Assembly: GCA_963755915.1 (NCBI GenBank)
Contig: CAVWLP010000002.1
Span: 2,944,001-3,008,000 of the forward strand
DNA: 64,000 nt
Origin: an uncultured Phycisphaerales bacterium
GTDB lineage: Bacteria; Planctomycetota; Phycisphaerae; Tepidisphaerales; Tepidisphaeraceae
Reading direction: 5' to 3'
Made by a program: the position numbers and the translations under genes
Shown: piece by piece, positions 10,356 to 63,020 of the stretch
How positions within the stretch are numbered: position 1 is the first letter of the stretch
Layout of the letters: each line of letters starts with the position of its first letter
Notes under the pieces: model-generated
What the model saw: the letters and a program-made list of their open reading frames with translations, nothing else
The model's database searches: none
Told to the model about the DNA's origin: nothing

Positions 10356-10485
10356 GCCCAACACCCCAGGGCCGCCCCGAACGTCATCAGGCCAGCCAAA
10401 TGCTATAGCAGCGGAACCGCCTGCAACATACGAGTCACCGCCTCTTCTCGTCACCAACACCGTAACCGAAAAGACTCTTCTTCTT
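10356..10485 (+). repeat. ~125-bp dispersed repeat family A, copy 1
   Basis: GCCCAACACC...GAACGTCA..AGGCCAGCC...GCGGAACCGC...ACGAGTCACCG...CTCGTCA...AACCGAAAA.ACTCTT; six further copies. Confidence 0.9.
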
Positions 10486-10494
10486 CGTTTTCCT

Positions 10495-10908
10495 TTAAGG
10501 ATGGTGTCGCGTGATATCGCTGAACTTGTCCAGATCAAGATCGAACGACGCCACCGCGTTACCTGTTTCAAACGCTGATGCCGCGAGGTAAGCATCCCCA
10601 AAGTCAACATTGGCCGCCTGTACCCGAGCCAGTGCGTCCACAATCCGCGACGGCTCCGAGAGATGAAACGCCGGCGTGTTCAGCAGGCCAGCCAGCGTCC
10701 GTGCCGCCCGACGCCGGTCGACATGATACGACGTTCGCAACGCATAAAATGCCTCCGCGACGGTCACCGCCGACACTTCCAAAATCACCGCTCCCCGGCT
10801 CGCCTGTTGAATGAGTTTTGCCGCACGCGGCGAAAAAACGGCGTGATCGTTGCGAAGGAACCGAATCAAAACATTCGCATCGACTTGATAAGTGGGAACC
10901 CCCGCCAT
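10495..10908 (-). CDS. vapC: PIN-domain (VapC) toxin
   Basis: VDANVLIR, TVAEA, DFGDAYLAA, SFDLD. Confidence 0.9.
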   Translation of the reverse strand: MAGVPTYQVDANVLIRFLRNDHAVFSPRAAKLIQQASRGAVILEVSAVTVAEAFYALRTSYHVDRRRAARTLAGLLNTPAFHLSEPSRIVDALARVQAANVDFGDAYLAASAFETGNAVASFDLDLDKFSDITRHHP

Positions 10909-11168
10909 CTTATCGTTTCCCCGATGCGCGCTTTCCCATCAGCTTGCGCTCGTGATTTCTCGTCGGGATCATAAGCGCCCGGGCCCCCCAACGCGCCAAA
11001 GAGCGACATCACATCCTTCAGCGGCTGCATCGTAACCACACCCGTGCCCGTCATCGAGATACGGATTTTCCCCTTCGCTCCTAAGTTCATTGCCTTGCGG
11101 ATTTTGGGTGGAAGGGTTAGTTGTCCTTTCCCAGTGACTGCGACGTCCTTGTAAAAGCCTTGCGCCAT
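10866..11168 (-). CDS. AbrB/MazE/SpoVT family antitoxin
   Basis: VTGKGQLTLPPKIRKAMNL; lies upstream of and overlaps the PIN gene. Confidence 0.85.
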   Translation of the reverse strand: MAQGFYKDVAVTGKGQLTLPPKIRKAMNLGAKGKIRISMTGTGVVTMQPLKDVMSLFGALGGPGAYDPDEKSRAQADGKARIGETIRWRGFPLIKSMRMF

Positions 11169-11401
11169 CAGCTTATTGTACAGCGTCAAATACCGCGGCC
11201 AAGCCCCGATCGAGCCACGCACAAAGAGATTCACCCCCTCTCTTGTCCCATAAGGTTAAAGTTATTCACCCACCCCTCCCGATGATTTGAGGGGATGCGC
11301 TGCGGTGCGCGGGCGAGCGAATGGGCAACGCGCACTTTTTTTCCGGGCCGACGGAACGGCTCGACTGACGCAGCCATCCAGGCAACCAAGGAAGGTCGGC
11401 C

Positions 11402-14439: not shown

Positions 14440-14533
14440 ACGAAAAATTCGAAACGCAAAACTCGAACGATAGGCCGTTTCGAATTTTAAATTTCGAATT
14501 TGATTCGTCATTCGAATTTCGAATTTCGAGTTT
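14440..14533. repeat. TTCGAA(TT)-rich short tandem repeat tract (family F)
   Basis: TTCGAATTTGATTCGTCATTCGAATTTCGA core; related tracts at 5627-5650, 19039-19095, 33958-34033, 39084-39172 and 45969-46042. Confidence 0.85.
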
Positions 14534-16906
14534 TATTTCGTCGCAGCCGGTGCATCGCGCATTGCCGGCATCGATTCCGCGGTACTAATCGTAAACGTCA
14601 TGTCTTCGCTTACATCCGTCCACTGCATCAACAACCCCTCCGGCAAATACCCCATCATTTTCCCATTCCCGATCTGCGACGCCGACGGAATCGACCGCAG
14701 CAAAACCCGCACGTTCCGCGCCCGCCCATCCCCGCTGAGCATGATCTGCTGCCCCGAGCGCCGGCACTGAATCTTCGCCGTGCTTTCTCCATCCGATGCG
14801 ACAAGTCGCAACGAAATCTCCGCCCCATCCGCAATCTGAAAAAGCTGCAACGTCAGTTCATCCTCCAGCAGCCAGGAAGGATTCCGCTTCTCGCTGGCAA
14901 CCGGGACAATCGAATTCTCCCTCACGATCAGCGGAATATGGAGAAAATCCACCTTCTCCGAAACCCATCGCCCGCCAACGATCACCCGCCCGCTCAAAAA
15001 ATTCGTCCACTTTCCCTTCGGCAGGTAATACTCCACCGTGTTATCCATCCGGAAAACCGGCGCCACCAGCAGCGACGACCCCAGCATATATTGCCGATCC
15101 AGATACGGCACCGCCGGATCCTCCGGAAATTCCAGCACCATCGCCCGCATCACCGGCCAACCAAATTCCCCCGCATCCTTCGCCGCCGCGAACAAATACG
15201 GAAAAAGCTGGTTCTTCAATTCCGCAAAGTGCCGCACCACCTGTACCGATTCCTCGTCAAACAGCCATGGCACCCGGTACGACGTCGACCCGTGCAACCG
15301 GCTGTGCGTGCTCAATAATCCAAACGCCGCCCACCGCTTGTAAACCGCCGGATTCGCCGTCCCCGAAAATCCCCCAATGTCATGGCTCCAGAACGCCGGC
15401 CCCGACATACAAAAGCTCAATCCCCCGCGCAAGCTCTCCGCCATCGATTCAAACGTCGCCTCATTATCCCCGCCCCAGTGCACCGGAAATTTCTGGCTCC
15501 CGATCGCCCCGGCCCGTGCGAACACCACGGCATTATTTTTCCCATGATGCTTCTCAAGCAGCTCGAACACCGCCTTGTTGTACAGATAGCTAAAATGATT
15601 GTGCATCAAATGCGGATCGCCCCCGTTGTGATACACCACGTCTTCCGGAATGAATTCCCCAAAATCCGTCTTGAAAGAATCAACCCCCATTTCCAGCAGA
15701 TTCCGAAGCTTCGACTGATACCACTCCACCGCCTTCGGATTGGTGAAATCCACCAGCCCCATCCCCGGCTGCCAGGCATCGCGCTGGAACACGCTCCCAT
15801 CCGCCCGCTTCAGCAGATACCCCTCCCGCGCCGCCTCCGCGAAAAGCTCCGAAAGCTGCGAAATATACGGATTGATCCACACGCAAATATGCAGCCCGCG
15901 CTCCTTCAGTCGCTTCAGCATCCCCCGCGGATCCGGAAACGCCTCCTCATCCCACTGAAAATTGCACCAGTGCCGCTCCTTCATCCAGAAGCAGTCGAAA
16001 TGAAATACGCTCAGCGGAATCTGCCGCTGCGCCATCCCCTCCACGAATTCCGTGACGGTCGCTTCGTCATATTTCGTCGTAAACGACGTGCTCAGCCAAA
16101 GCCCCCACGACCACGCCGGCGGTAGGGGGGCGCCCCGTCAGCCGCGTATACTTCTCCAGAACTTCCTTCGGCCCCGGTCCCCGAAAGACATAATAATCCA
16201 GCTCTTCCCCGCCCACGCTGAACTGAACCTGCGACACCCGTTCCGTCGCGATATCAAAATCCACCCGCCCCGTAGAATTCACCAGGATGCCATATCCCCG
16301 GTTCGAAAGCACAAACGGAATATTCTTATACGCCAGCTCGCTCCCCGTCCCCCCGTCCTCATTCCAGATCGAAACGCTCTGTCCATTCTTCACCAGCGGC
16401 CCAAACCGCTCGCCGAGCCCATACAAACATTCCCCCACCCCCAGCCGCAGCCGCTGCATCATCCAATGCTCGCCGCGCTGGCTCGTCATCTGCCCCAGGC
16501 TCTCGCGCTCCCCGCCGCTGATTACCGTTCCCCCATCCTCAAACTGCATCGACCAGCGGTTCTTATTCACCCGCAGCGAAAGCCGCCCGCTCGTAAACAC
16601 CAGCTCATCATCCCGGTCTTCAATCTTCACCCCACTCGCCGCCAGCGAATAATCCAGGTCCGCCTTCACCGTCCGCCGCGCATCGGGCATGTGATGCACA
16701 ATCCTCACCCGGATCACATCCGCCATCGGCGAGCTGATCTGCAACTGAAGAACCAGCCCCTCAAACCGATCAACCGCATCGATATCATCCCGATCCACCG
16801 CCGCGATCCATAGCGAATCCCTCGAAACGCGGTACTCCGTCACCCGCCGCACGCAAAACGGCGTAATCCCTTCAGCCCACTTCCATACACCATGGCTGAA
16901 CTTCAT
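14533..16906 (-). CDS. yicI: Alpha-xylosidase (GH31, YicI); frameshift near 16100-16130
   Basis: MKFSHGVW, YGLGERFGPLVKNGQ, FHFDCFWM, FKTDFGE, HWGGD, WSHDIGGF. Confidence 0.93.
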
Positions 16907-18941: not shown

Positions 18942-19175
18942 CGCCAGATTCTGTGTACCGGCGGGGCCCTGATCTTGCAACCTTTGCTGGATAGCTCCGC
19001 TCCGTCAGATGCACAACGGTCGCTACTACCGCCTGAAGTTTCGGACATTCGAATTTCGAATTTGATTCGTCATTCGAATTTCGAGTTTCGAATTTGGGCT
19101 GCGGGCACTACCCACGCAAGGCTCGCCTGGTTTTTATTGCTTTGAGCCGCCCCCACACCGTAAACTACCCCACAC

Positions 19176-23833: not shown

Positions 23834-23914
23834 GTAACCCGGTATATCCCCCGTATCCCGTGTAGCCGGCGAGCTTGCTCGCCGCTCCGCCCTTTTAAAA
23901 ATCACAAACCAATT

Positions 23915-30954: not shown

Positions 30955-30981
30955 GCGTCTCCTGTTCAGAATTCTCTTCCC

Positions 30982-31107
30982 GCCCAACACCTTGAGGCCG
31001 CCCCGAACGTCACCAGGGCGGCCCTGTGTCATCGCAGCGGAACCGCGTTTCCATATACGAGCAACCGCATCTTCTCGTCACCAAAACCGTAACCGAAAAT
31101 ACTCTTC
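30982..31107 (+). repeat. ~125-bp repeat family A, copy 2
   Basis: GCCCAACACC...GCGGAACCGCGTTTCCATATACGAGCAACCGC...AACCGAAAATACTCTT. Confidence 0.9.
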
Positions 31108-31159
31108 ATAATGCTCGCGAACACAACAGTTACGAAACGCGACAAAAATCATTGCCACC

Positions 31160-44658: not shown

Positions 44659-44693
44659 GCCCACAAATATACTCGAATCCCACAATTACCTGA

Positions 44694-44823
44694 GCCCAAC
44701 ACCCCAAAGCCGCCCCGAACTTCACCCGGCCAGCCATGTGTTCCCGCGGCGGAACCGCCCGTGATATTCGAGTCACCGGCTACCCTCGTCGCACAAACCC
44801 CAACCGATAAAAATCCCTCTCTT
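44694..44823 (+). repeat. ~125-bp repeat family A, copy 3
   Basis: GCCCAACACC...GCGGAACCGCCCGTGATATTCGAGTCACCG...AACCGATAAAA. Confidence 0.9.
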
Positions 44824-44978
44824 CCAAACCCCAACAGGGCCGCCACTGCCACCAAACCTCCGCCCCTGAACATTTGCCCATATGCCCGTTTTGCACATAC
44901 AATATGCGTGCCTCATGAGGGATGGATGCCCCGGGCAATTGTTTCTAAGCAAGGACGCATAACACGGAGATCTGATTT

Positions 44979-48655: not shown

Positions 48656-48724
48656 CAGCCGACATGACATCTACTATATGGAAACGCCCACGGCGCCGCC
48701 GTGGGGCATTTATGCCCATTCCCT

Positions 48725-48795
48725 GCCCAACACCCCAATGCCACCCCGAACTTCACCAGGCCAGCCATGTGTCCCCGCGGCGGAACCGCGTTTTA
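48725..48795 (+). repeat. ~125-bp repeat family A, copy 4, left half (interrupted by IS110)
   Basis: GCCCAACACC...GCGGCGGAACCGCGTTTTA, then IS sequence. Confidence 0.9.
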
Positions 48796-48870
48796 TAATC
48801 GCATGAAAGGCCATCTCCCTGCCGGAAGTTAACATTCCGGTTTTGGTGTCATTCACACAAGGAGATAGCC

Positions 48871-50070
48871 ATGAAGTTATACGACAAGGTAGTTCAGGTA
48901 GGGCTGGACGTCCATCGGAAGTTCTCGTCCGCCAGTCTGCGCGACGCTTCCGGGAAGGTCATTGCTCGCGAACGCCTGGATCACCTGGATCGCCAAAAGC
49001 TTCGAGAGCGAATCGCTCAGTGGCCGCGAGGCACGCCGGTGATCCTGGAAGCGACATTTGGCTGGGGATGGCTCAGCGATGAGTTGCAGATTTTGAACAT
49101 GCAGCCCCACCTGGCCTCGAGCCGCAAAGTGGCGGCATGGCGGGAAGGACGCGGGATCGCCAAGAGCAACAAGGTCGATGCCGACCTGCTCAGTGAACTC
49201 TGGAACGAAAAACCGATATTTAAGCGAGGCATCATGAAGCGCTGGTGGGAAGTCTGGCTGGCCCCACGCGAGATTCGTGATCAGCGGGAGCTGCTGCGCC
49301 ATCGGATGACCCTCGTTCAGGCTCAAACGCAGTTGAAAAATCGCATTCACGCGACGCTGCACCGCCATGGAATCGTCAGCGAGCTCACCGACCTCTTCGG
49401 TGTGCAGGGCCGGCGTTTCCTGTCGCTGCTCACCGAGGACAAGACCCTGAGCCTCTCAGGACGCCAGACGCTCAAGGAAGATCTCATGCTGCTGGATTCT
49501 CTGCGTCGCCTGATCGCACGGGCCACCCGCCGGTTCCGCGCGACCATGAAACGATCGGAGATCGGCCAGCGCCTGATGACCGTGCCGGGCATCTCCACCG
49601 TGCTGGGATATACGCTGGTCGCCGAGATCGGCCGAATCGATCGTTTCTCCTCCAGTCGATGCCTGCTCCAATACAGCCTGCTGGCGCCGCAGGCCGACGA
49701 CAGCGGAGAAGATCGCGATGCCAAGCCCATCGGCCGCCGACTTGGTCACGCCGGTCGCACTACCCTTCAGTGGGCCTTTATTCAGGCCGCCCACTCGGCA
49801 GTGCAAAGGGACGCTTTTTTGCGAGAACTTTTCAATCGCCGTACCAACAACGGCAAACAGGACCGCGGTCGCGGCTACATCACCGTCGCCAACCGCATAT
49901 GTCGGATCGTCTATTCAATGTGGAACAACAACCAGGATTATCAGGAGGTGCCGCCCCCAAGACCGGGAAGCAAAAGACATAAGGAACTGATCTCGTCCGG
50001 AAGTGGGCCAGCCCTGGCTCGAATTGGCCATGAGCCCGAAGCAATTCAGGCTCGAGAGGCCACGTTATAA
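48871..50070 (+). CDS. IS110 family RuvC-like recombinase/transposase
   Basis: GLDVH, ILEAT, KSNKVDA, coiled coil, TVPGIS...AEIG.IDRF, DSG serine loop; GGAG RBS. Confidence 0.95.
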   Translation: MKLYDKVVQVGLDVHRKFSSASLRDASGKVIARERLDHLDRQKLRERIAQWPRGTPVILEATFGWGWLSDELQILNMQPHLASSRKVAAWREGRGIAKSNKVDADLLSELWNEKPIFKRGIMKRWWEVWLAPREIRDQRELLRHRMTLVQAQTQLKNRIHATLHRHGIVSELTDLFGVQGRRFLSLLTEDKTLSLSGRQTLKEDLMLLDSLRRLIARATRRFRATMKRSEIGQRLMTVPGISTVLGYTLVAEIGRIDRFSSSRCLLQYSLLAPQADDSGEDRDAKPIGRRLGHAGRTTLQWAFIQAAHSAVQRDAFLRELFNRRTNNGKQDRGRGYITVANRICRIVYSMWNNNQDYQEVPPPRPGSKRHKELISSGSGPALARIGHEPEAIQAREATL

Positions 50071-50199
50071 TTGGGCCGCCCGCGCCGGATGAGATCATGT
50101 GCCGCTCGGCCAAACGCTGTTGATCGGGCCCGGCCAGCACGAATGGATATATGGACCGCCGAGAGGCCAGTCACCAGCCGGCAGACGGACGAAGAGGTC
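49989..50199 (+). ncRNA. Predicted bridge/seek RNA of the IS1111-type element
   Basis: Closing stem 49989-49999/50186-50199; target arm 50003-50083; donor arm 50084-50182; loop segments match the target flank and the donor junction. Confidence 0.8.
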
Positions 50200-50246
50200 T
50201 CGGAATGAAAAAGAAGTAACCGCTTTTCGCGAGGAGAATTTTTTTG

Positions 50247-50270
50247 TTGATCGGGGAAGCCTTTCATGGA
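50247..50270 (+). promoter_or_regulatory. -35 half of the circle-junction promoter
   Basis: TTGATC (50247-50252)-16 nt-GA|TAAT, formed only when 50270 is joined to 48796. Confidence 0.65.
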
Positions 50271-50330
50271 TATTCGAGCCACCGCATTTCCTCGTCACTC
50301 AAACCACAACCGAAAATACTCTTCTTCTTC
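50271..50330 (+). repeat. ~125-bp repeat family A, copy 4, right half
   Basis: TATTCGAGCCACCGC...CTCGTCACTCAAACCACAACCGAAAATACTCTT. Confidence 0.9.
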
Positions 50331-50460
50331 TCTCTGTATGCCGACTCGAATTCCTCACTGGACAAGAAAGACACCATCCCATCGCAACAATTTTGCACTA
50401 CCTTGTTCTGAATCCCCCAACATGTTCTAATTTAATTTTAACAGCAAACCCCGCGGAAAT

Positions 50461-51585
50461 ATGGGCTTCATAGAACGCATGAAATGGTGGCACTGGACCC
50501 TCATCAGCATCGCTCTCGGTGCATTCCTCGCCTACATCAACTCCGGCGGCGCCGACACCTCCGTCAACCACGAATCCGTCTCCACCGTAACCTTCGAAAC
50601 CGGCCTCCTCCTCCGCCCCTGGGTCGACCCCAGCAACCCCAACCGCCGCGAGGCCTGGTTCAGCGGCCTCGTCATCCACCCCGTCCAGGACGTCCCCGTC
50701 GGCGACCACACCGTCAAGATGCAGCTCATCAGCTTCACCCGCCTCCTCGCCCCCGACAAAGACCACCCCTCCGGCTCAACCCAAACCCAATGGTGCTGGG
50801 TGCCTTTCCCCTACGAGCCCACCCCACGCCAGAGCGCCCGCGCCAACAGCCAGCCTTATCCTGGCACCAGCGTCTACGTCGGAAAAAAAGGCGACACCCT
50901 CGACTCCCTCGCCGCTCGCTTCTATCACAAGTCCACGCCCCTCGGCATCCACTCCATCATCTATGCCAACTCCTCCCTCCGCGAAGCCCACGGCCCATCC
51001 CAAATCAAAATCACCCCCGGCCGCGCCTACTGGATCCCCTGGAACCCCGCTGACGGACACAACGTCACCGACTTCATCCTCGCCGCCAACCAATATCTCC
51101 AAAAGCAGCAGGGCGATAACGCCCTCCTCGTCTCCTTCCATTACCGCTGGTGGGAAAACTCCAAATACACCTACGAAGCCTGGATGATCGCCTCCTTCCT
51201 CCTCGTCGGCGTCATCTGGCCCACCCTCCTCTCCGTCATGATCAAAGGCGGCTACGGCCGCATGACCCCCGACGAATACAACCTAGCCCGCTTCAAAGGC
51301 GGCCCCGAGCCCACAACCGCCAAACCCACCGCTCCCGTCGTCACCCAATCCGACATGGACCGCCTCCGCGAGCTCGAAGAATCCCTCGCCGCCTCCATCA
51401 AAGCCTCTCCAACGGAAACTCCCGTCCCCGCACCCGTCGCCGCCGCCCCCCCCGAAGTCAAAAAACTCACCGCCACCCCGGAAACTTCAAAGATCGTCCC
51501 CCAATCCCCCGAAGAACCCACAGAATACACCGGAGAATTTTACCCCGTTGTAAAACCCCACGAAAAACCCAAAGATACCCCCTAG
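50461..51585 (+). CDS. Two-TM membrane protein with LysM-like domain and Pro/Glu-rich tail
   Basis: YVGKKGDTLDSLAARFY...IIYAN...ITPGRAYWIP. Confidence 0.6.
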   Translation: MGFIERMKWWHWTLISIALGAFLAYINSGGADTSVNHESVSTVTFETGLLLRPWVDPSNPNRREAWFSGLVIHPVQDVPVGDHTVKMQLISFTRLLAPDKDHPSGSTQTQWCWVPFPYEPTPRQSARANSQPYPGTSVYVGKKGDTLDSLAARFYHKSTPLGIHSIIYANSSLREAHGPSQIKITPGRAYWIPWNPADGHNVTDFILAANQYLQKQQGDNALLVSFHYRWWENSKYTYEAWMIASFLLVGVIWPTLLSVMIKGGYGRMTPDEYNLARFKGGPEPTTAKPTAPVVTQSDMDRLRELEESLAASIKASPTETPVPAPVAAAPPEVKKLTATPETSKIVPQSPEEPTEYTGEFYPVVKPHEKPKDTP

Positions 51586-51646
51586 CTCCACCCATGTATT
51601 TGTTTAGCCGCGACCCGCAGGGGAGCGCTTTCTTCGACTGATCCTT

Positions 51647-51997
51647 ATGCCCAACGAAACTCCTCCCATCCTCGCCCTCGTCCGCGACCTCATGTTTTCG
51701 AGTCGCATCACCGCCGAAGCCCGCGCCGCCAGCGCAAACATAAAAATCATCCGCGACCCCACCCAGCTCGATTCCTCCGACCCCACCTCCACCCTCATGC
51801 TCGTAGACCTCAACCTCCCCGGCGCAATCCAAGCCGCCGCCGCCTGGCAATCCCAATCCCCCAACCGCACCGCCGTAGGCTTCGTCTCCCACGAAGACGC
51901 GAGCACTATTTCACAAGCCCGCACCGCAGGCCTCCAACAAATCCTTGCCAGAAGCCGCTTCGTCCAGCTCCTCCCCCAACTCCTCTCCCAAAAATAA
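51647..51997 (+). CDS. Degenerate receiver (CheY-like) domain protein
   Basis: DLMFSSRI, LVDLN, VGFVSH, ARTAG, RSRF. Confidence 0.65.
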   Translation: MPNETPPILALVRDLMFSSRITAEARAASANIKIIRDPTQLDSSDPTSTLMLVDLNLPGAIQAAAAWQSQSPNRTAVGFVSHEDASTISQARTAGLQQILARSRFVQLLPQLLSQK

Positions 51998-52154
51998 GTC
52001 TCCCCCCTTTGCCTGAAATGGGAACGCCCACGGCGCCGCCGTGGGGAATTTTGCAAATTATTCACCAATCTCAATCTGACCCACCCCCGCAATCCCCATT
52101 GCAACCTCCGCCCCCATCCATAAACTCAACACCCTAATTTCAAGGAGTTCCTAA

Positions 52155-53219
52155 ATGTCTACCGCAAACCGTCAACTTATCGATCTCCTCGGCCCCGATG
52201 CCGATTCCCTCTTGAACTACACCGCCAAAGGTTTCAAACGCGATCTCCTCCACCTCCCCGGCCCCGACTTCGTCGACCGAATCCTCGCCGCCACCGACCG
52301 CTCCTCCAACGTCCTCCGAAATTTCCACCTCATCATGAACACCGGCCGCCTCGCCAAGACCGGCTTTGTCTCTATCCTCCCCGTCGATCAGGGCATCGAG
52401 CACTCCGCCGGCGCCAGCTTCTCCCCCAACCCCATCTACTTCGACCCCGAAAACATCGTCAAGCTCGCCGTCGAAGGTGGCTGCAACGCCGTCGCCTCCA
52501 CACTCGGCGTCCTCGGCTCCTGCTCCCGCAAGTACGCCCACAAAATCCCTTTCCTCGTCAAGCTCAACCACAATGAGCTCTTGTCCTATCCCAACAAGTT
52601 CGACCAGATCATGTTCGCCCAGGTCAAACAGGCCTTCGACATGGGCGCCGTCGCCATCGGCGCTACCATCTACTTCGGCTCCGCCGAATCCGACCGCCAG
52701 ATCCAGGAAGTCTCCCGCGCCTTCGCCGCCGCCCACGAGCTCGGCCTCGTCACCGTCCTCTGGTGCTACCTCCGAAACCCCGCCTTCTCCACCCCCGACA
52801 AAAATTTCGACCTCGCCGCCGACCTCACCGGACAGGCCAACCACCTCGGCGTCACCATCCAAGCCGACATCATCAAACAAAAACTCCCAGAAAATAACGG
52901 CGGCTTCACCACCCTGAAATTCGGCAAAACCAGCAAAAAAGTCTACTCCGATCTAACCCCCGGCGACCACCCCATCGAACTCTGCCGCTATCAAGTCGCA
53001 AATTGTTACATGGGCCGCAGCCCGTTAATCAACTCCGGCGGCGACTCCGGCGAGCACGACTTCGCCGACGCCGTCCGCACCTCCGTCATCAACAAACGCG
53101 CCGGCGGCATGGGCCTGATCTCCGGCCGAAAAGCCTTCCAACGCCCCATGCAAGACGGTGTAAAATTATTAAACGTCATCCAAGACGTCTACCTGGACCA
53201 AGGAATCACTATCGCCTAG
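52155..53219 (+). CDS. fbaB: Class I fructose-bisphosphate aldolase
   Basis: [42 protein letters not shown]. Confidence 0.96.
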
Positions 53220-53275
53220 GAACCGCGCATTTATCCCCTCTCCCGGTACTCCGGGAGAGGGCTAGGGTGAGGGCC

Positions 53276-54064
53276 TTGAGCCAGACCCGACCTCCAACAA
53301 AAACCGCCCTAGTCACCGGCGCCTCCACAGGCATCGGCCGCGACCTCGCCCACCTCTTCGCCCAGGACCACCACAACCTCGTATTGATTGCCCGCACCCA
53401 ACCCGCCCTAGAACAACTCGCCGCCACTCTAAAACACCAACATAAAATCGAAGTCCAAATCATCCCCCAGGACCTCTCCGACCCCGCATCCCCCCAAAAA
53501 ATCTTCGACCAACTCCAATCCCAACCCATCGACTTCCTGATCAACAACGCCGGCTTCGGCTCCCACGGCCCCTTCGCCGACTCCGACATCCAGACAACTC
53601 TCTCCATGCTCCAACTAAACATCACCACTCTCACCCACCTAACCCGCCTCTTCCTCCCCCAGATGCTCCAGCGCCGCTCCGGAAAAATCCTCAACGTCGC
53701 CTCCCTCGCCGCCTTCCTCCCCGGCCCCCTCATGGCCGTCTACTACGCCACCAAGGCCTATGTCCTTAGCTTCTCCGAAGCCCTCTCCTCCGAGCTCGCC
53801 GGAACCGGCATCACCGTCACCGCCCTCTGCCCCGGCCCCACCCAAACCGAATTCCAAGCCCGCGCCGGAATCTCCCACTCCCTCCTCTTCAAATCCAAGG
53901 TCATGCCTTCCATGACCGCCGCCCGCATAGGCTACCGCGCCATGCTAAAAGGCCATCGCACCTCCATCCCCGGCCCCTTAAACAAACTCTCCGCCCTCTC
54001 CACCCGCCTCCTCCCGCGCCAAATCACCGCCGCCGTAGCCAAAAAACTAAACCAATCCCGCTAA
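53276..54064 (+). CDS. Short-chain dehydrogenase/reductase
   Basis: TGASTGIG, NNAGFG, YYATK; TTG start immediately after a family B repeat. Confidence 0.9.
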   Translation: MSQTRPPTKTALVTGASTGIGRDLAHLFAQDHHNLVLIARTQPALEQLAATLKHQHKIEVQIIPQDLSDPASPQKIFDQLQSQPIDFLINNAGFGSHGPFADSDIQTTLSMLQLNITTLTHLTRLFLPQMLQRRSGKILNVASLAAFLPGPLMAVYYATKAYVLSFSEALSSELAGTGITVTALCPGPTQTEFQARAGISHSLLFKSKVMPSMTAARIGYRAMLKGHRTSIPGPLNKLSALSTRLLPRQITAAVAKKLNQSR

Positions 54065-54067
54065 CCC

Positions 54068-54107
54068 ACTTTCACACCTTCTCACCTTCGCACTTTCACA
54101 CCTTTCA
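54068..54107. repeat. Octamer tandem repeat (CACTTTCA/CACCTTCT units) between convergent genes
   Basis: Five imperfect 8-nt units. Confidence 0.7.
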
Positions 54108-55496
54108 AACCACAACCCTCTTCCACCCCCCATTCCAAAACCTCCCAAAAATCACACACCCCCGAATAAACAATTCCCCCGCCAACACCACCCAAACCGC
54201 CTCCAGCCCCATCTTCCAAACCAACCCCACCACGATCACGCCCGTAAACCGGAGCCCAATCACACTCGCCAGATTCAAACACATCACCACAAACGTATCC
54301 CCCGCCCCGCGCAGCGCACCCCCAAAAATCAAACTGGAAGCGAACCCCGCCTGAATAAACCCGGTAATCCGCAAACACCGCGCCGTCATCTCCACGATAT
54401 GCCCATCGTTCGGCGACAACCACTCCGCCGGATACCTCCCCAGCGTAATCATCAATATCCCGCACAAAACCATCGCCCCTCCACCCCCCGCATACGCCAG
54501 CAGCGCGCTCCGCATCGCCCGCCCCGGATCTTTCCTCCCCAGCGAAATCCCCACCATCGTCGCCGCCGCCGTGGCAAACGCGATCCCCGACAAAAAGCTC
54601 ACGCTCTCCAGCCTGACGGTATTTATATGCGCCGCCGAAGAAGCATTCGTAGGATCCATCCGATTGATCACCGCGATCACCGCAAAATTCGCAAACCACG
54701 CCAGCAGATTTTCCACGCCCGCCGGCACCCCGATCCTGAACAGCCGTTTGATCGTAAGCCAGTCCGGCCGCATCCGATGGATATAAAGCCGCGCCCCACT
54801 AGTCCCCACCCAAACGACGAGAAACTCCAACACCCCCCCAGTCACATACGCAATAATCGTCCCCGCCGCGATCCCCGTAAATCCCATCACCGGCAATCCC
54901 CACCACCCCCGCGTCAGCGCAAAGCTGCAAACCATATTCACCACGTCCACGATCACCATCACAATCGCCGGCGTCAGCGTATCCCCACCCCCGCGCCTAT
55001 ACGCCCCCGCGATAAACATCACCATCGTAAACGGCAGCGCCGCGCTCAGCATCCTCAGATACTCCAGCGCAAACCCCTTCCCCATCCCCTGCAACTGCGT
55101 CGCCTCAATAATCGGCCGTCCCCCGATTGACAACAACACCCCGCAAACCACCCCCAAAATAATCGCCGCCGCCACCGACTGTCCCGTCACCCGGTTACTC
55201 AGCGACCGATGCCGCGCCCCCTTCGCCCGTGCGATCAGCGCCGTGCTCCCCGTTCCGATCGAAGAAACCAGCAGCCCAATCAGCCACAAAAAATATGTAA
55301 CCGTCCCCACCGCCGCCCCCGCATCCGCCGCATGCGAGGGAAGATGATTCGCGAGATAGGTATCATTCAACCCCACCAGCATGTGCAAAACTTGCTCAAC
55401 CCAAACCGGCCCCGCCAGCGCAAACAACTGCCCAAAAAGCCCCCAATTGCTTTCCCGCGCAACCCCCACCCTCGAATCTTCAACCACATCCGTCAT
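54105..55496 (-). CDS. MATE family efflux transporter
   Basis: LAGP...EQ, GGDTLTP, GAGDT, ~12 TM segments. Confidence 0.9.
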   Translation of the reverse strand: MTDVVEDSRVGVARESNWGLFGQLFALAGPVWVEQVLHMLVGLNDTYLANHLPSHAADAGAAVGTVTYFLWLIGLLVSSIGTGSTALIARAKGARHRSLSNRVTGQSVAAAIILGVVCGVLLSIGGRPIIEATQLQGMGKGFALEYLRMLSAALPFTMVMFIAGAYRRGGGDTLTPAIVMVIVDVVNMVCSFALTRGWWGLPVMGFTGIAAGTIIAYVTGGVLEFLVVWVGTSGARLYIHRMRPDWLTIKRLFRIGVPAGVENLLAWFANFAVIAVINRMDPTNASSAAHINTVRLESVSFLSGIAFATAAATMVGISLGRKDPGRAMRSALLAYAGGGGAMVLCGILMITLGRYPAEWLSPNDGHIVEMTARCLRITGFIQAGFASSLIFGGALRGAGDTFVVMCLNLASVIGLRFTGVIVVGLVWKMGLEAVWVVLAGELFIRGCVIFGRFWNGGWKRVVV

Positions 55497-55498
55497 AA

Positions 55499-56611
<1,113 letters not shown>

Positions 56612-56676
56612 CGGATTTATCGGACCCACCCAATCACAGTGACACCGCCCCCACACTGAGTTATACATATCACCCA

Positions 56677-58293
56677 GTGACCGTAGTTCGCGTTATTCCC
56701 GCCGACTCTCCCCGTGTAGCCGCCGGGCTTGCCCGGCGCGTTCTCCTCCTCTCCCTCCTCCTCACCACCGCCTGCACCACCGGACCCTATTACTACCCCG
56801 CCGCCACCCGCTCCCCCATCGACCGCCGACTCGTCGAATACCCCGAAAACTTCCAGCTACAGGAAGTCATGACCGGCCTCACCAGCCCAACCGCCATCTG
56901 CTTCGACGACGCCGGAAACATGTTCGTCGCCGAGGGCGGCCTCGACGGCCGCGACCCGCGCATCTTCTATATCCGAAAATCCGACGGCGCTCGCGTCGAC
57001 ATCTACCCCGTCGGCACCCGCATCCCCATCCCCATCTTCTCCGTCGGCTACCACATCTACGGCCCCATCGGTGGCATGGTCGCCTATCGCGGCAAACTCT
57101 ACGTCTCCCACCGCGATTACAACGACATGGGTGCCATCACCGCCTTCGACGACAACGGCAATCACCAAACCATCATCGCCAATCTCCCCGCTCAGGGAGA
57201 TTTCGGCGTCACCGACGTCGCCATCCCCGCCTCCTCCCCAGATCCGCGTCTCTACTTCGGCGTCGGCGCCGCCACCAACAGCGGCGTCGTCGGCCTCGAT
57301 AACTGGGAAGCCGGCTGGGTCCGAGACCATCCCCAGGCCTGCGACGTCCCCTACGTCCCCCTCTATCTCCTTGGCTTCCGTTTCGACGTCCCCAACCCCC
57401 AGGCCAGCATCTTCTCCCCCGGAACCCTCGTCACCGTCCCCTTCCAGCCCCTCGGCATCAGCGACATCGAACAAGTCCCCGCCGCCGACTTCCCCCTCCA
57501 GAAACCCACCGGCGCCGTCATGAGCGTCGCTCTCGACGGTGGCGACGAACGCGTCGAAGCCCACGGCCTTCGCGACCCCGTCGGTCTCTCCCTGGACGAC
57601 TACGGCAATATCTACGTCACCAACCGCGGCATGGAACTCCGCGGCACACGGCCCATCGACAACGACCCCGACGCTCTCTACCGCTGGACCTTCCCGGGCA
57701 CCTGGTTCGGCTTCCCAGACTACTCCAGCACCTTCGACCCCATATATCTCCCCAAATACCAGCCGCCCCCGTGGATGGTTCTCCCCACCGGCTATCCCGA
57801 CGTCCGCTTCGTCGTCGATCACGAAACCAGCAAGCTCCAACCCCCGCCCGCCCAGGACCTCCTCTCCCAATTCCCCTGGCAGTCCGGCGTCTCCAAAATG
57901 GCTTGGATCCCCGAATCCGGTCCCTTCCACATCCCCCGTTACGAAGGCCAGCTCCTCGTCGCCCTCTGGGGCGACTCCGCTCCCTTCTCCACCAGCGGCC
58001 GTCCCATCCCCAATCCCCTCCCCGGCTACCGCGTCGTCCTCGTAGACCCCAACCAGCACGGAAAAGTCTCCGATTTCATCTTCAACACCAAGGGCACCCC
58101 AGCCAGCAAAGTCCCCGGCTCAACCTCCCAGGCCCTCGAACGCCCCATCGACGTAAAATTCTCCCCCGACGGCAACCTCTATATCCTCGACTTCGGACAA
58201 GCCGAATTCAAACACTCCCAACTAACCACCCCCAACGCGACGGGAAAAATCTACGAACTAATCCCCACCCCCAGCACCCAATCCCCCCAATAA
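56677..58293 (+). CDS. Glucose/sorbosone dehydrogenase-like beta-propeller lipoprotein; start uncertain
   Basis: GLTSPTAI.FD, GAATNSGVVG.DN, AHGLRDP.G, RG.RPI, RPIDVKFSPDG.LYILDFG; lipobox LTTAC. Confidence 0.75.
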   Translation: MTVVRVIPADSPRVAAGLARRVLLLSLLLTTACTTGPYYYPAATRSPIDRRLVEYPENFQLQEVMTGLTSPTAICFDDAGNMFVAEGGLDGRDPRIFYIRKSDGARVDIYPVGTRIPIPIFSVGYHIYGPIGGMVAYRGKLYVSHRDYNDMGAITAFDDNGNHQTIIANLPAQGDFGVTDVAIPASSPDPRLYFGVGAATNSGVVGLDNWEAGWVRDHPQACDVPYVPLYLLGFRFDVPNPQASIFSPGTLVTVPFQPLGISDIEQVPAADFPLQKPTGAVMSVALDGGDERVEAHGLRDPVGLSLDDYGNIYVTNRGMELRGTRPIDNDPDALYRWTFPGTWFGFPDYSSTFDPIYLPKYQPPPWMVLPTGYPDVRFVVDHETSKLQPPPAQDLLSQFPWQSGVSKMAWIPESGPFHIPRYEGQLLVALWGDSAPFSTSGRPIPNPLPGYRVVLVDPNQHGKVSDFIFNTKGTPASKVPGSTSQALERPIDVKFSPDGNLYILDFGQAEFKHSQLTTPNATGKIYELIPTPSTQSPQ

Positions 58294-58442
58294 CTACCCG
58301 CCCCAAAAATGAGCCGGGCTGTCCCCAGCCCGTCCCCCCGCGACCCAAAACTCGCTTTCCCATGTAGCCGCCCCCGCTTGCGGGGTGCGTTTTTCGAACC
58401 CCTCAAATCGCGGGTTCCCCTTCTTGTCTCCGGTCCAAACAC

Positions 58443-58572
58443 GCCGAACACCCCAAGGCCGCCCCAAACGTCACCAGGCCAGCCATGTGTCCCCGCGGCG
58501 GAACCGCACGCGATATTCGAGTAACCGCCTTCCCTCGTCAAACAAACCTCAACCGAAAATAGTCTTTATTCT
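58443..58572 (+). repeat. ~125-bp repeat family A, copy 5
   Basis: GCCGAACACC...GCGGAACCGCACGCGATATTCGAGTAACCGC...AACCGAAAATAGTCTT. Confidence 0.9.
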
Positions 58573-58647
58573 CTATCTCCATCCGACAACACACGACACC
58601 CTTTTCCAATTGACCCTCCCCTCACCCAGACATAAAGTCCCCCCAAA

Positions 58648-58947
58648 ATGTCCGCGCCATTTCCCTCAATCCTCGCCGACGCCGACCCCCTTGACATCTT
58701 CCTCGCCTGCTTCTTCCTCTTACTCTTCGTCCTCGCCGGCTTCTACGCCGTCTACTGGCTCCGCAAACGCATCTGGGGCGTAGATGACTCCGCTACCCCG
58801 TCCCTCGGTTTCACCATCGGCGACCTCCGCGACCTCCACCGTTCCGGAAAACTCACCGACGAAGAATTCCAAAAAGCCAAACAAAAAATCGTCGCCTCTC
58901 ACCTGGCGACCCCACCCTCACCCCCAAAACCGCCCCATAACCAATGA
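58648..58947 (+). CDS. Single-TM SHOCT domain protein
   Basis: LRDLHRSGKLTDEEFQKAKQKI. Confidence 0.8.
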   Translation: MSAPFPSILADADPLDIFLACFFLLLFVLAGFYAVYWLRKRIWGVDDSATPSLGFTIGDLRDLHRSGKLTDEEFQKAKQKIVASHLATPPSPPKPPHNQ

Positions 58948-58989
58948 AAGTGCCGCCGGTGTCCTCACCGGCGGAATCCCCCCGTCCCC

Positions 58990-59022
58990 CATTCGGCATT
59001 TGGCATTCGGCATGCGGCATTC
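58990..59022. repeat. Heptamer tandem repeat (CATTCGG-like)
   Basis: CATTCGG CATTTGG CATTCGG CATGCGG CATTC. Confidence 0.75.
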
Positions 59023-59273
59023 CATCTGCCAATAATCTCCCCCTCCATCCCCCAAAACCGCACCCCAAAAAATCTTTTCCCCGGCCCACATTTTGCCTTT
59101 TCCCTTTCCCATATTCCCGCTGTAAGATTGCCTTAACCTCATGGATTGGAGGTCAAGTCTCCACCCATGAATGTTCGATACTTAACTTGACGTTAAGTTT
59201 TGATCTTACTGACGTTTGGCGCTCAATAACATATTGACTGGGCCGCTCATCGGCCCCGAAGGATCGAAAGTCG

Positions 59274-60661
59274 ATGGCCACCACGAATCGCACCGGCAAC
59301 GGCGGACCCCCGGGAAATCTTCCCCCTCCAGGCAACAATCCCAGCAATCAATCCGGATTCCGCGGCCGTAGAATCACCACCTGCTCCTTCTGCGGCAAAT
59401 CCTCCCGCGATGTCGGCCCCATGGTCGAAGGCCCCAGCGAGGTCTACATCTGCGCCAATTGCGTCGACCTCGCCCACAACATCATCCGCCAGGAAAAACG
59501 AAAGCTCTCCGCCTCCCAGCCCCTTTTCAGCACCATCCCCTCCCCGCGCAAGTCAAAGAATTCTTAGACCAATATGTCGTCGGCCAGGGCCACGCCAAAA
59601 AAGCCCTCGCCGTCGCCGTCCACAACCACTACAAACGCCTCACCACGTCCGACTCAACCGCCAGCGCCAACGCCGTCTCCCCCGATGCCGCCGCCCCCGT
59701 TACCCCAACCGTCGCCGACGTCGAGATCGACAAGAGCAACGTCCTTCTCATCGGCCCCACCGGCAGCGGCAAAACGCTTCTCGCCAAAACCCTGGCCCGA
59801 ATCCTCAACGTCCCCTTCGCCATCGGCGACGCCACCACCCTCACCGAGGCCGGCTACGTCGGTGAAGACGTAGAAAACATTCTTCTGAAGCTTTTACAAA
59901 ACGCCGACTACGACCTCGAATCCGCCCAGCGCGGAATCGTCTACATCGACGAAATCGACAAGATCGGCAAAACCCAGAACAACGTCTCCATCACCCGCGA
60001 CGTCTCCGGCGAAGGCGTCCAGCAAGCCCTGTTGAAAATGCTCGAAGGCACCATCGCCAACATCCCCCCGCAAGGCGGCCGCAAACACCCCGAGCAGCAA
60101 TACATCCAGATGGACACGTCCCAAATCCTCTTCATCTGCGGCGGCACCTTCGTAGGCCTCGAAGACATCATTCGCAAACGCCTGGGCAAGCGCCAGATCG
60201 GCTTCAACTCCGAAACCTCTCCCGCCGAAACCTCCCGCGACCGCGCCCGCATCCTCGCCCAGGTCCAGCCCGAGGACTTAGTCGAGTTCGGCATGATCCC
60301 AGAATTCGTAGGCCGCCTCCCCGTCGCCGCCACCTTGGATCCGCTAGACATCAAAACCCTGATCAACATCCTGACCGAGCCCAAAAACGCGCTGGTAAAG
60401 CAATTCCAAAAATTCTTCCGTATAGAAGGCAGCGAACTGGATTTCACCCCCGGCGCCCTGGAATTAATCGCCGAGCGCGCCCTGAAACGCGACACCGGCG
60501 CCCGCGCCCTCCGCGCCGTAGTAGAAGAAATCATGATGGACCTGATGTACCGCCTCCCCGACCAGGAGCAGGGCGGAAAATATTTAATCACCGAAGACAT
60601 CGTAGAAGGCCGCCAAAGCCTCTTCGACCTGAAACCCGAGCGCCGCAAAGAATCCGCCTAA
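59274..60661 (+). CDS. clpX: ATP-dependent Clp protease ATP-binding subunit; frameshift near 59548
   Basis: CSFCGK zinc finger; [34 protein letters not shown] loop. Confidence 0.96.
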
Positions 60662-60678
60662 ACCCCGCACGCCAAAGA

Positions 60679-60707
60679 AAGCCCCACGATGGTATCGTGG
60701 GGTTTTT
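60679..60707 (+). terminator. Rho-independent terminator after clpX
   Basis: CCCCACGAT-GGT-ATCGTGGGG followed by TTTTT. Confidence 0.75.
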
Positions 60708-60757
60708 CATTGTTTAGCCGCGCCCCGAAGGGAAGCAGCTTTCCCCCTCGCGCGCAA

Positions 60758-62695
60758 TTACCCCGCCTTCCCAAACCCAAACACCATCGTCCGCGACCCA
60801 TTCCCATCAACATTAACCTCCACCTCCCCACCCCCGAGCGAATCCCCCTCAACCCCATCCGCCCCCGTAACCCTCACCCGAGAACCCCCACGCACCAGAT
60901 CAAACCCATCCCCCACCCTGAAAATCTTCACCCCCCGCGCCAACTTCAACCGAAACCCCACCCGATCCTTCGGATCCTTCGACAGATCCTCAATCCTCAC
61001 CGTCATCGAAGTCGCTGAAAACGAATAAGTCTCCCTCACCCCCAAATCGCTGAAGCAAATCGAACTCCCCGTCTTCTCCACCACATTCTGCAACTGCCGC
61101 GCCCCAAAAAAAGTCGGAAAATTCCCCACCCCAAACCCATCCAGATCATTCGAAACAAACTGCTCCTTATCCACCCCCAGACTCAACAAATCCCCATTCC
61201 CGGAAATAATGACATCATACAATTCCGTTGCCACCCGCCGCGACCCAATCACCGGCTTAATCTCAATCCCAACCGTCGGCGCAAATTCATCCGTCCGAAA
61301 CGGCCCCGCCGGCAACCCCGCCGAATTATAAAGATCGCACACCGGCACCGCCCCCCACGCATACCGCACAAACCGCGGCTCCTTCACATCCTCGCACCTC
61401 ACCACCACCGCATCCTCCCCATCGATCCTCCCCTCCGCAAAATGAAAAACCCCATCCCCACCCGCCACCGCGAACCCCGTCACAAATTCCCCACCCCCGC
61501 GCGCCGCCAGCGCGCCATCATGCGTATCAAATCTCACCCGCATCCCATCTCCCTCCCGCGTCGCGCTCTCAAACGTCGGCCCATCCGCCACCACATCCTC
61601 GTGATACGCCAACCGCTCCGCCTGCAGCGCCGCCCGCCTCCCAATCTCCCCCTTCTCCCGCGGATGCAGATTAAACCCATTGGTCGTATCGATCGAAACC
61701 ACCAGCCCCGTATCCCGATTCTCTTCCACCACCCGCCTCTGCGCCTCCCTCACCCAGGTAAACGGAAACCCCGCATACAAATCCGTAAACGCCGGCAATT
61801 GCACAATAATAAACGGCAAATCCCCGCGCCCAAATTGCTCCCGCCACCCCTCAATCAGCTCATGCATGATCGCAGGATAAAACTGCGACTTCCCCGAATT
61901 GTTCTCCCCCTGATACCACACCACTCCGCTCAGCCCCACCGGCCCCAGCGGCGCGATCATCCCGTTATACAAAGCCCCCGGCCCCAGATTAAACATCGAA
62001 GGCGAAAACTCGTCCTTCGAAAAATCCTTCAATCTCCCCACCGGCGTCCACCCCTCCGCCGAAGTCCCCCCAAACGAGCTGTCAATCAGCCCAATCGGCA
62101 CCCCCTTAAGTTTCGGATCCCGCGAAAGCCACAACCCAAAATGCACCGCCACCGCGCTGAACTTCTCCACCTCCCCCGAATCCCCCGTCACCCAACGCCC
62201 ATCCACCCGATAGTTCGGCTTATCCGCCCCAAATTTCGGCACCTCAAGCAGCCGCAGCCCCGCCAACCCCCTCGCCTCCTTCTCCATCTCCTCCGCCTCC
62301 ACATCTTCCCCCACCCCCAGTTGCATATTCGACTGCCCCGCGCACAGCCAAACATCCCCGCAAAGAATATTCTTTAGCCCAATCGACTCCCGGCCACTGG
62401 AAATCTCCGCCGTATACGGCCCACCCACCCCCAGCGCCTTAACCGCTGTCTTCCAATGCCCTGAAGCATCCGCCACCGTCGAAGATCTTTCATCCCCGAA
62501 CCTAATCTGAACAACGGCGCCCGCAGTCGCCTCCCCCCAAACGACGACATCCCGACCCCGCTGCACCACCATATTGTCCGAAAACGTAGACCCCAGCATC
62601 AGCGCCGCCCGAGCCGTTTGAGCGCTCGCCAGGACACCGACGATCACCGAAAGGACAACCCCAATTAAGCCATTTAACCGATTGCTCCGAGCCAT
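60758..62695 (-). CDS. Sialate O-acetylesterase family protein
   Basis: GDVWLCAGQSNM, GGTSAEGW, WYQGE, LHPREK, VRYAW. Confidence 0.9.
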   Translation of the reverse strand: MARSNRLNGLIGVVLSVIVGVLASAQTARAALMLGSTFSDNMVVQRGRDVVVWGEATAGAVVQIRFGDERSSTVADASGHWKTAVKALGVGGPYTAEISSGRESIGLKNILCGDVWLCAGQSNMQLGVGEDVEAEEMEKEARGLAGLRLLEVPKFGADKPNYRVDGRWVTGDSGEVEKFSAVAVHFGLWLSRDPKLKGVPIGLIDSSFGGTSAEGWTPVGRLKDFSKDEFSPSMFNLGPGALYNGMIAPLGPVGLSGVVWYQGENNSGKSQFYPAIMHELIEGWREQFGRGDLPFIIVQLPAFTDLYAGFPFTWVREAQRRVVEENRDTGLVVSIDTTNGFNLHPREKGEIGRRAALQAERLAYHEDVVADGPTFESATREGDGMRVRFDTHDGALAARGGGEFVTGFAVAGGDGVFHFAEGRIDGEDAVVVRCEDVKEPRFVRYAWGAVPVCDLYNSAGLPAGPFRTDEFAPTVGIEIKPVIGSRRVATELYDVIISGNGDLLSLGVDKEQFVSNDLDGFGVGNFPTFFGARQLQNVVEKTGSSICFSDLGVRETYSFSATSMTVRIEDLSKDPKDRVGFRLKLARGVKIFRVGDGFDLVRGGSRVRVTGADGVEGDSLGGGEVEVNVDGNGSRTMVFGFGKAG

Positions 62696-62760
62696 AATTT
62701 TCAGTCTACGCCATTTCCAAGCGCCCATCACCATCGCTCCCGAAGCCCTGCCACCTCACA

Positions 62761-63020
62761 GCTCCCTCGAACGTAACCAGGGCAGCCATGTGCTCCCCCC
62801 GCGGAACCGCCTGTTATATACGAGTCACCGGATCCCCTCGTCACTCAAACCGAAACCGAAAAAACTCTTTCTCTGATTGACCTCCCAAAAAATGCAAAAA
62901 ACGGATCCCCACAGTTTTGCAAAACACGCCCGGCCATGTGCTCCCCCCGCGGAACCGCCTGTTATATACGAGTCACCGGATCCCCTCGTCACTCAAACCG
63001 TAACCGAAAAAATCTTCCTC
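62761..63020 (+). repeat. ~125-bp repeat family A, copies 6 (62761-62874) and 7 (62930-63020), in tandem
   Basis: Two near-identical GCCATGTGCTCCCCCCGCGGAACCGCCTGTTATATACGAGTCACCGGATCCCCTCGTCACTCAAACCG units. Confidence 0.92.

Follow-up and report, generated by a model that had tools for sequence, protein, structure and literature searches.

Repetitive extragenic palindromic sequences (REPs) bearing a GTAG tag have been reported in Planctomycetes also, according to the portion of PMC3733652 available to us, and the available portions of PMC1525189 and PMC12288879 describe REP-type repeats as targets of insertion sequences (ISs) of the IS110 family. Elements of the IS1111 group usually carry subterminal inverted repeats of 11-13 bp and a long non-coding region downstream of tnp, which encodes the transposase (Siddiquee et al., PMC11187229, accessible sections), and the enterobacterial repetitive intergenic consensus (ERIC) or RU-1 sequences are 127-bp intergenic repeat units of enterobacteria, going by the accessible parts of PMC2759123 and PMC10969869. 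Here we describe a dispersed non-coding repeat unit of about 135 nt in a 64,000-nt stretch of DNA (hereafter the window) from an uncultured Phycisphaerales bacterium (contig CAVWLP010000002.1 of assembly GCA_963755915.1, positions 2,944,001 to 3,008,000). The source genome, G000, is a metagenome-assembled genome (MAG) of 6.63 Mb in three contigs, with a completeness of 81% and a contamination of 8%. [quoted passage not shown] Our literature search returned no description of this repeat, nor of repeat polarity in Planctomycetes.

A repeat search of the window found three overlapping repeat families that jointly cover the unit, all on the + strand, with starts at 10353, 30979, 44691, 48722/50269, 58440, 62743 and 62894/62963. 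A preliminary description of this DNA had placed copies at seven positions on one strand, and all seven are borne out on the + strand. The units and the IS that splits one of them are as follows:

10353..10491, + strand: repeat unit 1, directly 5' of which (10300-10352) is a long-looped, REP-like hairpin bearing a GTAG tag
30979..31118, + strand: repeat unit 2, between two - strand HtrA-like protease genes
44691..44829, + strand: repeat unit 3, with an orthologous copy in the congener G001
48722..48797, + strand: repeat unit 4, 5' half, split by the IS; the orthologous G001 site is without a copy
48798..50270 (1.47 kb), + strand: IS1111-type (IS110-family) insertion sequence, its ends ambiguous by the 3 nt ATA common with the target
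48871-50070: transposase gene of the IS, 399 aa (PF01548, PF02371, NF033542)
50071-50270: non-coding region of the IS, 200 nt, 3' of the transposase gene
50271..50335, + strand: repeat unit 4, 3' half
58440..58578, + strand: repeat unit 5; the orthologous G001 site is without a copy and has different intergenic DNA
62743..62881, + strand: repeat unit 6, its 5' third degenerate
62930..63029, + strand: repeat unit 7, partial, covering model positions 53-151 (the 3' two thirds), in tandem with unit 6

The nhmmer E-values of these units range from 5e-14 to 6e-42, which excludes a chance origin of the matches. A genome-wide nhmmer search with a profile built from five window copies returned 50 matches at E<=1e-3 (28 on the + strand and 22 on the - strand), and a broader profile, with split halves merged, gave 47 units (approximately 45-47). 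The co-orientation attributed to the copies regardless of neighboring genes is therefore a property of the window that does not extend to the whole genome. With 47 units in 6.6 Mb, a 53-kb stretch should hold about 0.4; the seven found there amount, by hand calculation, to roughly 20 times the genomic density. All copies are intergenic, as had been claimed, lying between genes called by our own rough codon-bias gene caller and, in the window, between Pfam-supported genes. The unit is 135 nt long and non-palindromic, contains the direct repeats CGTCACC and AACCG, and has internal blocks that are kept across genera (GGCCAGCC, GCG-N4-CGC, ATATTCGAG, CGTCAC and AACCGA) while the spacers vary. The elements GCGGAACCGC, CGAG..CTCG and AACCGA, which had been called invariant, are so in the full window copies; across 39 copies from the genome their conservation is at least 90%, short of invariance. 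Paralogous units have a median nearest-neighbor identity of 83%, rising to no more than 89% if one local duplication is set aside, and orthologous unit pairs are 78-90% identical. Paralogs have thus diverged about as much as orthologs; the family is old, with no recent burst.

Unit 4 shows how the repeat is used by an IS. Profile matches assign the 48722 segment to model positions 13-93 and the 50269 segment to positions 85-148, and the two segments, which flank the IS, are halves of one unit. The preliminary description had correctly listed them as a single copy (48725/50271) but overlooked that the 1.47 kb between them is an IS. The transposase matches PF01548 at 7e-9 and PF02371 at 1.6e-13, and scores 161.5 bits (cut-off 140) against NF033542, "IS110 family RNA-guided transposase"; 73 nt of 5' non-coding DNA precede its gene. 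The IS agrees with the IS1111-group criteria given in the accessible sections of PMC11187229 in its subterminal inverted repeats (CATGAAAGGC / GCCTTTCATG, 10-11 bp) and its 200-nt 3' non-coding region. Its GC skew is -0.01, inside a strongly skewed window. The genome contains exactly four copies of this IS, with 100% identical proteins, and all four interrupt the repeat unit at the identical position and in the identical relative orientation, with no target-site duplication (TSD). This RNA-guided IS of the IS1111 type inserts specifically at the block GCGTTTTATA^TATTCGAG. The sequence is GCGTTTTATA|ATCGCATG... at the left junction and ...CATGGA|TATTCGAG at the right one, only ATA being common to both, and the unit segments flanking the target ATA are GTTTTATA and TATTCGAG. 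Intact, unoccupied units with the same GCGTTTTATATTCGAG segment include those at C2:1266973, C2:1286296 and C3:805617. The unit is accordingly the target of an IS and not an IS end, one of the identities against which it had been proposed to check it. The IS would find the unit by base pairing between RNA of its non-coding region and the target; a search of that region for guide segments of the seekRNA or bridge RNA kind, complementary to both target strands, returned only 5-6-nt matches, and the duplex energies (-16.9 and -20.7 kcal/mol) do not improve on the shuffled-target means of -20.4 and -20.7 kcal/mol.

A second IS110-family element of about 1.5 kb is present in nine copies in the source genome (e.g., C2:2891747-2892649 and C3:806206-807108), its protein 24% identical to that of the first. 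It is flanked by a short CTTGGCG/CGCCAAG-type repeat, on both sides in six of the nine copies and on the right side only in three. RNA-guided ISs of two types are therefore present in this genome, and a different dispersed repeat is associated with each.

The unit has a narrow distribution. When 185,579 species genomes were scanned for exact pattern matches, only one other record contained the unit, under the title of an uncultured Phycisphaerales MAG; a BLAST-type search detected the unit in 8 of 41 relatives, and a sequence profile in 6 of the family's 101 genomes searched, from 4 of its 76 genera, G000 being included in both counts. One of the six positive genomes, G014, is unpublished, and the count for genus g3 rests on it. 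Judged by these searches, the unit family occurs in just a few genera, all within a single family of Phycisphaerales. The same G014 carries a locus (L044, G014:C13:17293-20399) with three or four co-oriented units about 1 kb apart, an array-like arrangement unlike the solo and paired forms found elsewhere.

Site content differs between close relatives. The congener G001 is syntenic with window positions 44217-63111 at 88-93% identity, with the same skew (-0.385 vs -0.364). Within this stretch the unit at 44691 is common to both genomes, while the G001 sites corresponding to 48722, 58440 and 62743/62930 have no full copy and different intergenic DNA, apart from a remnant of about 25 nt of the unit 3' end at the site matching 62743/62930. 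Conversely, G001 has a block of about 300 nt, made up of hairpin modules, core and extension, at the position equivalent to window ~60758, which is found neither in G000 nor in any of five further congeners. Of 12 distinct G001 copies, four are present in G000, six are not, and two received no call; for the six that are missing, both flanks map 1-77 nt apart in G000. These sister species, at about 90% identity, thus share four of ten resolved sites. Two loci (L003 and L033) gave clean filled/empty alignments, with no duplication of more than 2 nt; what distinguishes a filled from an empty site is a block in which the core has 20-70 nt of unrepeated DNA on either side, without a TSD. At the G001 ortholog of unit 44691 (L025), an IS5-like element of about 855 bp (G001:C4:551003-551859) lies exactly at the 5' edge of the unit with a CTNAG-type junction.

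The unit is also part of a modular arrangement. A GTAG-REP signature occurs within 140 nt upstream of 15 of 45 units, compared with 11 of 2000 random windows, and by inspection many of the remaining units follow another hairpin; the GTAG hairpins next to the units constitute a separate family. GTAG/TTAG-tagged REP-like hairpins (CCCCGTGTAGCCGCCG...CGGCGC) are found in the window at 23856, 27692, 33918, 41311, 42548, 45933 and 56710, and a RAYT-like (REP-associated tyrosine transposase) Y1 transposase gene at G000:C3:576500 is flanked by such hairpins (576179-576802) in a REPtron-like arrangement. None of the 39 strong copies in G000 has an inverted partner within 700 nt, and the preliminary description was right, for this genome, that the repeat lacks terminal inverted repeats and TSDs, is not a standard MITE, and is longer and less palindromic than a REP. 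In G002, G004, G010 and G056, head-to-head inverted unit pairs are present with cores 50-348 nt apart. The best-match loci of these genomes (two from G004) are pairs in five of five cases, and those of G005, G007 and G011 are solo in five of five. The arms of a pair run inward through shared hairpin modules and outward to a terminus ...GTCACGCACCC. In G004 there are 19 cores with this terminus after them and in G010 two, whereas no unit of G000, G001 or G007 has it. Direct repeats flush with both termini were exact, at 8 and 9 bp, in 2 of the 16 pairs examined, with near matches in two more; repeats of at least 8 bp occurred in 0.4% of 240 mismatched flank pairings.

Among the readings offered previously, that of a non-autonomous mobile element fits best and is partly supported, by the site differences between sister species and by the MITE-like pairs with direct repeats; the mobilizing enzyme was not found. 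The repeat family may have begun as, or travelled on, a non-autonomous transposon of the terminal inverted repeat (TIR) type, and would persist in the G000 lineage as single arms, often fused 3' to hairpins. Unit polarity could then arise if units were inserted or retained in a manner tied to the replication strand, and the conserved internal blocks would be putative protein recognition sites. We saw no autonomous IS with the same ends, although no systematic search for one was made. The gene between the arms of one G004 pair (G004:C19) encodes another IS110-family transposase, of a type that does not use TIRs. As for the single-stranded DNA (ssDNA) form of mobility suggested earlier, no TnpA or TnpB gene has ends matching the unit, and the two Y1 (HUH) genes of G000 have no trace of the unit within 2.5 kb (nhmmer, E<=10), so that Y1/HUH transposases are rejected as mobilizers.

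Several observations weigh against the selfish-element reading. No mobilizing transposase was found: the Y1 genes have no unit similarity nearby, and the G004 inter-arm gene belongs to the IS110 family. The solo units have no TSD and lack the ...GTCACGCAC terminus (matches to it number 1 in G000, which is off-target, 0 in G001, 0 in G007 and 19 in G004), and exact flanking repeats are found in only 2 of the 16 pairs, 11 of which were chosen as adjacent opposite-strand profile matches and are thus a selected sample. Because unique DNA flanks the core, deletion in the other lineage would account for most filled and empty sites as well as insertion does. A recent burst of copies is missing. The best-conserved blocks are internal, not terminal, a pattern no less consistent with protein binding or a host function than with a transposon end, and both the roughness of the gene calls and the incompleteness and contamination of the MAG must be borne in mind.

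The orientation of the units follows the local GC skew. The GC skew of the window is approximately -0.2 to -0.5, and fourfold degenerate sites are 80% C in + strand genes and 78% G in - strand genes, an asymmetry that ignores gene orientation; the genes on both strands are real by Pfam. The units of the window are co-oriented because the window is a single domain of extreme strand asymmetry. When orientation was compared with local skew genome-wide, as had been proposed, the C-rich form of the unit lay on the locally C-rich strand in 44 of 47 units and in 25 of 27 100-kb bins, with the unit sequence itself excluded from the skew measure. Units are also enriched in skewed DNA, with a mean |skew| of 0.191 against 0.107 for random positions (a value reached by none of 10000 resamples). 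In the flanks of relatives, 22 of 22 strong matches (E<=1e-12, two loci counted twice) are concordant with skew, as is one of three weaker matches. Orientation relative to the two flanking genes is mixed: over 39 full copies it is same/same in 14, same/opposite in 10, opposite/opposite in 8 and opposite/same in 7.

The other repeat families of the genome are polar too, including the REP-like GTAG hairpins (85 of 101), D13 (68 of 85), D19 (21 of 23) and D9 (48 of 75); co-orientation is not special to this repeat, as these families also follow local skew. Differential decay of wrongly oriented copies was considered as the cause of polarity and does not account for it. All 11 matches of intermediate score (15-60 bits) are concordant with local skew, leaving no discordant ones, and the G-rich tail of D13 is concordant in 32 of 40 cases, a G-rich part of a repeat thus preferring the C-rich strand.

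Contigs C2 and C3 of G000 are a mosaic of 10-80-kb skew domains of either sign beside unskewed stretches. Inversion mediated by long repeats or ISs at the domain boundaries was unsupported at that scale, where the mean skew jump at 148 long repeats equaled that at random positions (0.108 vs 0.108) and sign flips were about as frequent (13% vs 12.7%). A single contig carries two full DnaA-type genes, at C2:2252977-2253459 and C2:1091682-1092155, and close to the first of these dnaA copies the skew changes sign from - to +. In DNA with |skew| of at least 0.1, the C-rich strand holds 54-64% of the genes when they are counted and 53-58% when their length is taken. Transfer RNA genes likewise favor the C-rich strand (53 of 83).

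Two other accounts of these data retain some standing, though we regard both as rather unlikely. In the first, the unit is a host-functional polar DNA site, a platform for a replication, segregation or nucleoid protein whose orientation is selected relative to the replication strand, in the manner of other strand-skewed architecture sequences. It would account for the internal blocks kept across genera between variable spacers, for the direct repeats CGTCACC and AACCG, for the strict polarity of the units and for their enrichment in skewed DNA. The chromosome-architecture site proposed earlier survives as a rival in this form, but loses weight, since the same polarity is found in all repeat families of the genome. 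In addition, only four of ten resolved sites are common to the sister species, the symmetric inverted pairs of relatives cannot be polar, placement relative to genes is irregular, and the unit was not found in 95 of the 101 family genomes searched.

The second account, to which we give similarly limited credence, treats the repeats as a fossil record of a strand-specific replication-fork process in a lineage with record strand asymmetry. All dispersed repeat families, this one among them, may insert, or survive the loss of one arm of a long palindrome, only on the strand exposed as ssDNA, and the same exposure may drive fourfold sites to 80% C or G. The mosaic of skew domains with co-flipping repeats may show that the fork reverses direction many times along one chromosome, owing either to rampant inversion or to there being more than one origin, and the solo polar units of G000 and the symmetric pairs of some of its congeners may be two outcomes of one element that differ in strand exposure.

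Less probable by far is a portable promoter or 5'-leader cassette whose 3' end faces the gene it drives, with inverted pairs acting as divergent promoters. A called + strand gene does start about 65-150 nt past the 3' end in three of the six complete window units, and open reading frame (ORF) lists, the only source for the relatives, place an ORF start about 60 nt beyond both 3' ends at L041 and within about 140 nt of one 3' end at L019, L020 and L042. However, genome-wide the gene ahead of the unit is convergent in 18 of 39 cases, so that the unit faces its 3' end, sometimes only 7-93 nt away; no sigma-70-like site lies inside the units of 44000-63200 (two nearby ones are downstream of units), the total of such sites is 5 against 5.0 in shuffles, and inspection revealed no spacing of the extracytoplasmic function (ECF) type.

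A structured non-coding or cis-regulatory RNA family, transcribed from the G-rich strand (- in the window), is close to refuted. Rfam gave no unit match at gathering score over the whole window, and none at E<=5 over 44500-63200, where two weak matches (E 1.3 and 4.6) fell elsewhere. RNAalifold on 59 copies produced no consensus fold on the + strand and a trivial one of -1.9 kcal/mol on the - strand. Minimum free energy z-scores of single copies were near 0 (-1.5 to +0.9) in nine of ten folds, and one of the five - strand folds reached -3.7, a point in favor of RNA. On alignment A2 (25 copies from seven genomes), the covariation check that had been called for, run as a comparison with shuffles, gave 0.041 against 0.039 for three candidate helices, a value reached by 158 of 500 shuffles, and these helices were paired in 73.7% of cells compared with 73.8% in shuffles. 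The CGAG/CTCG stem named in the preliminary description has its two inner pairs broken without compensation in 5 and 7 of 25 rows, and CTCG is missing at the stem position in seven distant rows. The imperfect hairpin GGCCG..CAGCC pairs better on the - strand than on the + strand when G.U is counted (82% vs 62%), but strand-specific C-to-T pressure alone would be expected to give this excess, and unit orientation is unrelated to genes. Public sequencing runs containing part of 56600-60700 number 15, one of them RNA.

That the copies are decayed protein-coding fragments or a small ORF family has almost no probability left and is likewise close to refuted: in 29 of 39 copies the trimmed core contains no stop in one of the - strand frames, and by inspection an ATG follows a purine-rich stretch in most copies, but column variability has no 3-base periodicity (0.58, 0.60, 0.60), open frames of 43 codons should be common at this G+C content, and, again by inspection, about a third of the copies lack the ATG and length varies between the conserved blocks. 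Neither an Rfam match nor a coding signal, two of the findings named in advance as refuting, was encountered. Integron attC sites were also rejected, the genes between units being housekeeping genes on both strands with no cassette array in the window.

Other features were noted in the window. Three further dispersed repeat families, all skew-oriented, consist of CCCCTCTCCCGGTACTCCGGGAGAGGG+CTGGGGTGAGGGC, of AATTTCGAATTT-type arrays and of a GAAACGCCCACGGCGCCGCCGTGGGG hairpin; their sites, given jointly, are 5541-5603, 24413-24456, 29376-29438, 47571-47633 and 53224-53286, and further sites of the same three families are 14490-14533, 19052-19095, 39129-39172, 24906, 33884, 48678, 52018 and 55553. 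A DDE_Tnp_1 (IS4/IS5-type) transposase gene at 63132-63932 (- strand) lies in a multi-copy block beside the tandem units, and just before it is a hairpin-bearing repeat of about 65 nt (GGTCCAAA..TTTGGACC, 63046-63110) that recurs at several places in G001. A GH31 hydrolase is apparently split in two ORFs (14533-15882 and 16067-16843), and the ORF called for 1-deoxy-D-xylulose 5-phosphate (DXP) reductoisomerase (41345-42094 and upstream) holds only the C-terminal domains; the apparent splits probably stem from frameshifts in a long-read MAG, unless the genes are pseudogenes.

Taken together, this analysis names and dissects a repeat family of an uncultured group of soil planctomycetes and removes a false lead to a non-coding RNA. 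The IS1111-type element that it documents is a natural one, with four identical copies, a defined 135-nt landing pad and unoccupied targets in the same genome, which together offer a convenient system for testing how an RNA-guided element chooses its target. That units are solo and polar here but form inverted pairs in congeners is relevant to the tolerance of palindromic mobile DNA. More widely, all dispersed repeats of this genome follow its extreme and patchy strand asymmetry, and if that asymmetry marks fork direction, repeats would offer an independent marker of replication history in uncultured genomes.

A comparison of the unit with described repeat systems shows likenesses to several. 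Like REP/BIME and REPIN-RAYT systems (REP doublets forming hairpins, with their RAYT) of E. coli and Pseudomonas, the unit is intergenic and multi-copy, and its modules keep a constant order; one unit in three lies next to a GTAG-tagged hairpin, and the genome has a RAYT-like Y1 gene flanked by such hairpins. In contrast to REPs and REPINs, which are GTAG- or CGTC-tagged palindromes of 20-40 nt, frequently arranged as inverted doublets, with a RAYT gene that the same repeat flanks, the unit is a non-palindromic 135 nt and is unlinked to Y1 genes. Its strand polarity is also strict, and we know of no such strict polarity described for REPs. Bacterial MITEs and ERIC/RU-1 elements, to the extent covered by the accessible parts of PMC2759123 and PMC10969869, share its size, non-coding nature, intergenic location and patchy presence among close relatives. 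The units of G002, G004, G010 and G056 come closest to MITEs, forming long inverted arms with defined termini and some 8-9-bp flanking repeats, whereas every G000 unit is a solo arm without terminus, partner or TSD.

Non-autonomous elements derived from IS200/IS605 (palindrome-associated transposable elements, PATEs) move as single strands at the replication fork. The unit is like them in having no terminal inverted repeats, no TSD, a strand-locked orientation, an imperfect internal hairpin and a frequent position just 3' of other hairpins. Unlike PATEs, it comes with no TnpA or TnpB of matching ends and, by inspection, has no conserved target tetranucleotide at its 5' edge, and the symmetric pairs of relatives, with their TSD-like repeats, point to a DDE-type mechanism. 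As a target site, the unit resembles the REPs used by ISPpu9, ISPpu10 and IS621, in that a dispersed repeat offers many identical landing sites (PMC11187229 and PMC11208160, accessible sections). As with the IS1111/IS110 elements treated in those sections, entry is at a single position and in a single orientation, with no TSD beyond a shared core of 2-3 nt. Unlike the REP targets described there, the target of the IS1111-type element found here is a non-palindromic block inside a 135-nt unit.

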